In this document: piece by piece, positions 9,566 to 9,961 of the stretch
Layout of the letters: each line of letters opens with the position of its first letter
Numbering within the stretch: position 1 is the stretch's first letter
Assembly (NCBI GenBank): GCA_964016885.1
Contig: OZ024757.1
Span: 30,752,001 to 30,816,000, forward strand
Source: Eledone cirrhosa
Taxonomy: Eukaryota
Direction: 5' to 3'
Length of the DNA: 64,000 nt
Notes under the pieces: model-generated
Seen by the model: the letters and a program-made list of their open reading frames with translations, nothing else
Told to the model about the DNA's origin: nothing
The model's database searches: none
Made by a program: the position numbers and the translations under genes

Positions 9566-9912
9566 CACATACACACACATCTATCTATGTATACATAAAT
9601 ATTCATGCACAAACATACACACACAAATATGCATACAATTTCAGGCATACAGACACACAAACATGTATATAATGTATAAATATATATATATATATATAAA
9701 TACATACATACATACATACATATATATATAACGAAGGAGTTGTGGTAAGGAACCAGATGGACCATAACGCACCAGAGTACTCAATACTTAGGGTAGTAGA
9801 GTGGGTAATAGGAGAAAGTATGACGCCGATGGCAGAGCTCAAGCCGTTTCGACGGTTCCAGAAATAGCCGTCGAAACGGCTTGAGCTCTGCCGTCGGGGT
9901 CATCCTTTCTCC

Positions 9913-9961
<49 letters not shown>

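Follow-up and report, generated by a model that had tools for sequence, protein, structure and literature searches.

The window analyzed here, a stretch of 64,000 nucleotides of animal DNA, is 57% simple repeat by composition. Exons of a rhomboid protease lie on its minus strand (19567-20121 and 38642-38968), with best named matches to ribbon worm, annelid and mollusc proteins, and two of the hairpin elements described below, those at 22531 and 25589, are situated between them. A very frequent interspersed, SINE-like repeat of 100-310 bp, whose copies are 85-95% alike and often form partial tandems, occurs at 15809-16122, 35322-35578, 54891-55517 and about 15 more places. Elsewhere, a long tandem array with a unit of ~78 bp occupies 27293-29108 and contains an open frame that runs across many units. 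Three other open frames (31160-31975, 47181-47594 and 14758-15156), which we take to resemble decayed LINE ends, gave no Pfam match.

A preliminary description of this DNA had reported four copies of a short hairpin element, and all four are present at 9730, 22531, 25589 and 57206, with a mutual identity of 81-90%. Three of them consist of a GC-rich inverted repeat and a single-copy tail, as had been stated, with hairpins of 108-116 nt in which the second arm is inverted, adjacent and head to head with the first. The tail is found on one side only and is 78 nt long in all four copies. With the tail drawn on the right, the order seen directly in the window is (TA)n, tail-less inverted arm, center, arm, 78-nt tail and (TA)n. 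The center measures 22-30 nt, and the arm measures 43-45 nt from its GAAA box to the CCTAT at its end. The four copies have four different centers, in agreement with the earlier remark that the loop varies. In the copy at 9730, the single-copy tail (9730..9807, minus strand) runs to (TA)n and is followed by a hairpin with a 22-nt center (9808..9915); the tail-bearing arm has minus sense, with GAAA at 9850, and the tail-less arm has plus sense, with GAAA at 9873 and CCTAT abutting (TA)n. The copy at 22531 has its hairpin at 22531..22644 (24-nt center), with private changes common to both arms, a tail-less arm of minus sense, a tail-bearing arm of plus sense (GAAA at 22600), and its 78-nt tail at 22645..22722 on the plus strand. 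In the copy at 57206, the 78-nt tail (57206..57283, minus strand) adjoins a hairpin with a 30-nt center (57284..57399), in which GAAA of the tail-bearing arm lies at 57326 (minus) and that of the tail-less arm at 57357 (plus).

The copy at 25589 is organized differently. A tandem reiteration of 23 bp had been described there in place of the inversion; the reiteration is present, and its period is 22 (GTCGAAA at 25601, 25623 and 25645). The outer 8-9 nt of the terminal, tail-less arm are retained as a stub, followed by the 22-nt unit in the sense direction (25589..25647, plus strand), and then by an arm of 45 nt from GAAA to CCTAT and the 78-nt tail (25648..25770, plus strand). A fragment noticed earlier near 62720 is genuine (alignment to 22590-22635, E 0.002) and represents a decayed lone arm with a center remnant of the 22531 type (62717..62769, plus strand). 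A tail-only fragment at 41696..41733 on the plus strand (E 0.002), truncated on its arm side and lying between (TA)n runs, had been overlooked. The copies generally lie within (TA)n, as had been claimed for all of them, the exception being the tail end of the 22531 copy, which adjoins a degenerate TA/TG run. Arm end and TA run have 3-5 nt in common, and (TA)n flanks would mask any target-site duplication. Folding of the 57206 copy gave a z of -15.8, with none of 200 shuffles equally good; a single arm with its tail folded no better than shuffles (z 0.62 and -0.01).

The arms had been read as the 3' half of a hammerhead ribozyme, and this resemblance goes beyond chance. When a fit was defined as pyrimidine-GAAA, four further stem III pairs and a UH cleavage triplet, six of seven arms fit, compared with 12-55 of 5000 dinucleotide shuffles per arm; when a 6-nt loop palindrome was added to the definition, five of seven arms fit, compared with 0-5 of 5000 shuffles per arm. 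All arms belong to one family, so the fit counts as a single observation. The marks of Penelope hammerheads given in PMC4209133 include a C before GAAA and a palindromic loop 3, and the arms are like the minimal type I hammerheads of metazoan Penelope-like elements described there in the C before GAAA, the short stem III with a palindromic loop and the cleavage triplet. They are unlike them in lacking CUGANGA and the 5' strand of stem I. The same source describes hammerhead pairs on opposite strands, 100-700 bp apart. The reported absence of CUGANGA held in all five window stretches, where no exact match was found on either strand; matches with one mismatch sit within the arms, and none of them precedes a stem II. 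Also missing from the copies is the 5' strand of stem I, whose complement is present solely within the inverted arm. The tail contains no CUGANGA match even when one mismatch is allowed, so a permuted hammerhead using a box in the tail was rejected. An Rfam scan showed no hammerhead family among the 150 matches listed of 294; the matches listed fell below the gathering score and were mostly to simple-repeat sequence.

One arm had been said to show GAAAT...ATC, a double change that would preserve pairing. This combination occurs in just one of seven arms: GAAAT is found in both arms of the 22531 copy and ATC in only one of them, so that the other pairs GAAAT with GTC, and in the tail-bearing arm of the 9730 copy ATC stands mismatched opposite GAAAC. 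Since both changes are also CpG-type transitions, they give no evidence of covariation. The CUGANGA-less motif of this family is likely dead and, by the features tested, would not count as a functional hammerhead.

Complete cores do occur nearby. The window holds 18 matches to a CUGANGA...GAAA pattern, several of them in repeated families. A large, near-perfect hairpin at 23760-23995 carries CUGACGA...GAAAC on both arms, and a single arm of the same family at 45347-45404 ends at (TA)n. A family with a compact CUGAUGA-A-stem-GAAAC core is found at 21731, 57054, 57670 and 39025-39301, being joined at 39025-39193 to a 169-bp hairpin with 97% identity. Three more repeated hammerhead-core families have a long stem II (22410/45639, 25905/48905 and 26341/63839), and one of the three ends 25 bases before the 22531 copy.

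A further family, here called family A, shares the layout of our copies, its hairpin directly abutting (TA)n at one end and bearing a 77-nt tail at the other; its arm ends in CTAT and its tail in CGT. Family A has a complete type I hammerhead with a stem I of 6-7 bp. Its hairpin at 48129..48311 has the 77-nt tail and, on the tail-less arm, the complete hammerhead with a 7-bp stem I, and a second hairpin at 48602..48784 is 98.9% identical to the first and possibly a local duplicate. A lone arm at 56466..56534 (plus strand) carries a complete hammerhead with a 6-bp stem I and stops a few bases into the tail. In the tail-bearing arm of family A, the core is without a stem I partner and the junction lies exactly at the core. 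Distances to (TA)n are 0 and 79 in family A, and 77 and 80 for the copies at 9730 and 57206. An 11-mer is common to the family A tail and three of our four copies, at a similar position. In local alignments to family A, the best three of eight comparisons were matched by 35-39 of 2000 shuffles and the other five by 159-1386 of 2000; global alignment of the tails was not significant (172-1003 of 3000 shuffles). Kinship in sequence is only suggestive, and the argument from family A rests on the common layout, not on sequence.

Parts of the element are found in 14 of 17 sequencing runs (nine labelled organisms and one metagenome); no RNA run was listed among those with the element, which carries no information on expression. 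The tail patterns gave zero matches in metagenome contigs, viral contigs and prokaryote genomes. Four of the 17 runs (X1, X4, X6 and X15) were compared with a 177-base stretch of the window (57196-57372) comprising the tail, one arm, the center and the start of the second arm. Matching contigs numbered 20,952 of 16,285,364 in X1, 537 of 762,587 in X4 and 5 of 23,643,904 in X6, and matching reads numbered 25,482 of 12,467,656 in X15. The family is high-copy in organism A, these counts giving no copy number. The fixed end of the tail-less arms is directly visible in these data: 3588 X15 reads, 98 X1 contigs and 9 X4 contigs have (TA)n immediately beside 57284, and a fixed arm end is likewise seen for the 22531-type variant (1400 reads). 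Opposite-strand joints were distributed over seven different places (57334-57348) in the 10 such joints among the 15 joint rows listed of 19, although some of these positions are possibly alignment breaks. The variable joints in the reads and the differing centers of the window copies point to several junctions, as the preliminary description had proposed, rather than to one ancestral junction. Many X15 reads also end at 57337 and 57349; these ends coincide with two AATT sites and were set aside as library cut sites. One longer center is common to six X4 contigs and one contig of X6, which is from another organism. In the same stretch, places with A>G exceed those with T>C on the plus strand (10:0 in X1, 11:0 in X4 and 27:7 in X15); the stretch has only 58 A to 37 T, and an excess counted against one reference copy may reflect subfamily changes.

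Truncation inside a hammerhead would lead one to expect CUGANGA and a stem I partner upstream in longer copies. Neither was present in any of the eight upstream loose-end rows among the matches listed (24 of 461, 30 letters each), which leans against an intact parent ribozyme, though with this coverage one may still exist. The strongest upstream extension (1427 reads, agreement 0.74) prolongs the known center and has CTGGT ~20 nt before GAAA. This motif stands at approximately the place of the core in four of the eight upstream rows and was considered as a core remnant, but in a stretch of this kind chance alone would give four matching bases of six.

The two arms of a copy are most alike to each other. 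Within copies they differ at 2, 5 and 5 columns, compared with 6-16 columns between copies (18 of 18 pairs), and the private changes common to both arms of the 22531 copy include a 2-nt insertion. The arms of a copy were therefore made from, or corrected against, each other, which supports the earlier proposal insofar as arms are remade within copies, and the family does not go back to a single ancient hairpin whose arms drifted freely. The proposal that the second arm is copied by simple hairpin priming from a fixed stem II loop was not supported. In the 9730 copy, the two arms extend upstream of GAAA by 16 nt (tail-less) and 5 nt (tail-bearing), a difference of 11 nt; the tail-less arm of family A is longer by 6 nt (in two copies, perhaps one event). 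The tail-less arm of the 57206 copy is shorter than the tail-bearing one, and in the 22531 copy the arm that supplies the center is ambiguous. The orientation of the center relative to the tail is opposite in the 9730 copy to that in the copies at 57206 and 25589. Snap-back limits the second arm to the length of the first strand and allows a single center orientation, and thus cannot explain the 9730 copy or family A. Both directions of arm length follow if two cDNAs each terminate on their own and are then joined head to head.

On balance, these non-coding repeats are probably minimal products of insertion by a Penelope-like retroelement, derived from its 3' end (pseudo-LTR) and formed by two-site priming and head-to-head joining. 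We infer the Penelope origin, the two-site priming and the use of one RNA for both arms. Penelope-like elements are described in general in PMC8969392. Their insertions show 5' truncation, an adjacent inverted copy, a one-sided tail of 30-40 bp and a (TA)n bias (Craig et al. 2021, PMC8557442), and an equal unit with an inverted 5'-truncated copy and a one-sided tail has been described by Arkhipova et al. (2013, PMC3846280). Our copies have in common with these endonuclease-bearing units the 5' truncation, the head-to-head inverted copy, the one-sided tail, the simple-repeat target and the terminal-repeat hammerhead; they differ in that the whole insertion is ~190 bp and non-coding, the tail is 78 nt and only the 3' half of the ribozyme is present. 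In vitro work by Frangieh et al. (2024, PMC11167929) on Poseidon, a Penelope element of Anolis carolinensis, showed that its purified protein cleaves both strands of AT-rich DNA and extends them, using uncleaved RNA, and that it begins reverse transcription at two internal positions on the RNA, which delimit the tail. Our family shares with Poseidon an AT-rich target, copying beyond the cleavage site and a pair of fixed 3' ends located downstream of the hammerhead. The two ends are differently spaced, the likeness noted is one of layout, and our copies show no open frame.

In the favored mechanism, a GIY-YIG/reverse-transcriptase protein would be supplied by a longer partner element outside the window data; no reverse transcriptase or GIY-YIG match in Pfam was found in the 71 candidate frames of the window scanned, of 106. 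The protein would nick both strands of a (TA)n target and prime two cDNAs on one uncleaved RNA, the first at the tail end and the second 78 nt upstream, at the CCTAT arm end. The start at the tail end would give the long arm and the start at CCTAT the short one. Both cDNAs would run upstream past the GAAA box for 5-22 nt or more before halting, and would then be joined head to head, a step that we extrapolate from the in vitro two-site result. The 5' half of the hammerhead would thereby be omitted, and was probably degenerate in the template already. Sequence beyond the cleavage triplet is present in the copies, which fits an uncleaved template; variable 5' truncation with fixed 3' ends is found both in the copies and in the read data, and the tail-only fragment at 41696-41733 is consistent with 3'-anchored copying. 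Against this mechanism, no parent with such a protein was linked to the copies, the kinship in sequence to family A is weak, the 78-nt tail is twice the published 30-40 nt, and some junctions recur or are inherited, since the fragment at 62720 repeats the junction type of the 22531 copy and the longer center is found in both X4 and X6. Later deletions or template switches in the hairpin could yield the same center patterns.

A related possibility is that the copies derive from a Penelope-like element and that the second arm arose by fold-back self-priming at a short self-complementary stretch upstream of GAAA, later deletions or flips having altered the center. Self-priming was proposed by Arkhipova et al. 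(PMC3846280) from palindromes at the inverted junction, and the hairpin priming of the preliminary description comes close to it. The greater likeness of arms within a copy would follow from it; all junctions seen are confined to a short, quasi-palindromic zone, the turn in one X6 contig leaves almost no loop (57343), and by eye the longest X15 extension can pair, in a short stem, with bases before GAAA. We nevertheless hold it to be unlikely, given the tail-less arms that reach 11 nt (9730) and 6 nt (family A) further upstream and the opposed centers of the 9730 copy and those at 57206 and 25589. Alternatively, the hairpin may be non-autonomous and move as a whole unit, a Penelope protein copying a read-through transcript over its whole length, starting at the tail and passing through the two arms into the adjoining (TA)n; microhomology deletion would then make the centers vary, and hairpin repair would keep the arms alike. 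The longer center in two organisms, the recurrence of a junction type at 22531 and 62720, a 57206 center that by eye is derivable by deletion between short direct repeats, and a very high abundance with no long parent seen would all suit such movement. Four window copies with four different centers do not, and of the 10 arm-arm differences in three copies just one is same-sided in two copies, at a CpG site; an extra homogenizing step would also be required, and we regard whole-unit movement as rather unlikely. It is quite improbable that the ~190-bp hairpin is a self-propagating, protein-free Penelope parasite that has lost the catalytic half of its hammerhead and moves whole by means of a borrowed Penelope enzyme, the remaining half possibly being completed in trans by a partner CUGANGA RNA.

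Most improbable of all would be a non-autonomous DNA element, of the Helentron/HINE type or a MITE, whose likeness to a hammerhead arose by chance. MITEs have terminal inverted repeats at both ends; one end of our element is a single-copy tail, and no inverted-repeat relation exists between its two ends. Some support comes from HINEs, whose inverted repeats are placed asymmetrically, with one close to an end of the element and the other set 38-60 bp in from the opposite end (PMC4067079). The features described for them in that source, namely subterminal inverted repeats of 12-15 bp around a core, a 3' stem-loop and a TT target, are all absent here: the arms exceed 50 nt and are adjacent, the tail forms no significant stem-loop (z -0.44), and the flanks are (TA)n and not TT. 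An equal layout in a family with a full hammerhead also argues against a DNA element.

The repeats likely form a new family of a known insertion kind, Penelope-like by its insertion unit; strict assignment would require a parent element, and none was found among the 71 window frames scanned. The long tail and the missing half of the core are its sole oddities. An inverted repeat at 40111-40524, with (TA)n flanks, 165-bp arms of 99% identity, an 84-nt spacer and a 42-nt extension on one side, is likely a recent insertion of this type whose tail has the usual length. Our literature search found no publication on this family. The octopus elements Naiad_Obim and Naiad_Ovul, in the supplement of Craig et al. 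(2021), share its (TA)n preference, and Naiad_Ovul is labelled HHR_half_core there (PMC8557442). By eye, the Naiad 3' ends have GTCGAAAC after a hairpin and a one-off core, followed by a 6-nt palindrome and a G run; the downstream sequence is unlike the 78-nt tail, and the likeness is a lead at the level of motifs only. A search of that supplement with family motifs gave zero matches for eight of nine and one chance-like match. Non-LTR retrozymes (bioRxiv 10.64898/2026.07.22.740005) are likewise small, non-coding derivatives of Penelope terminal repeats, but they are head-to-tail tandems with complete ribozymes, whereas our copies are head to head with half a ribozyme. The available part of that preprint covers head-to-tail derivatives alone, and assignment to the retrozymes was rejected, since neither head-to-tail tandem units nor a complete hammerhead was found in our copies. 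In Octopus vulgaris, 31 recently active Penelope-like families have been reported (PMC13282606); the available portion of the main text does not mention hairpins, and the accompanying repeat library may already include our family.

As a family, these repeats are ordinary retroelement debris. They also form a natural dataset, in which copies are numerous and a whole insertion fits one short read, so that junctions can be counted. Such counts bear on whether the inverted repeats and tails of Penelope-like elements arise by two-strand priming at two sites or by self-priming. The copies at 22531 and 25589, lying between rhomboid exons, are predicted to give short double-stranded RNA in an intron. 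The 78-nt tail, a length common to two families here, would extend the 30-40 nt range of Penelope-like tails.
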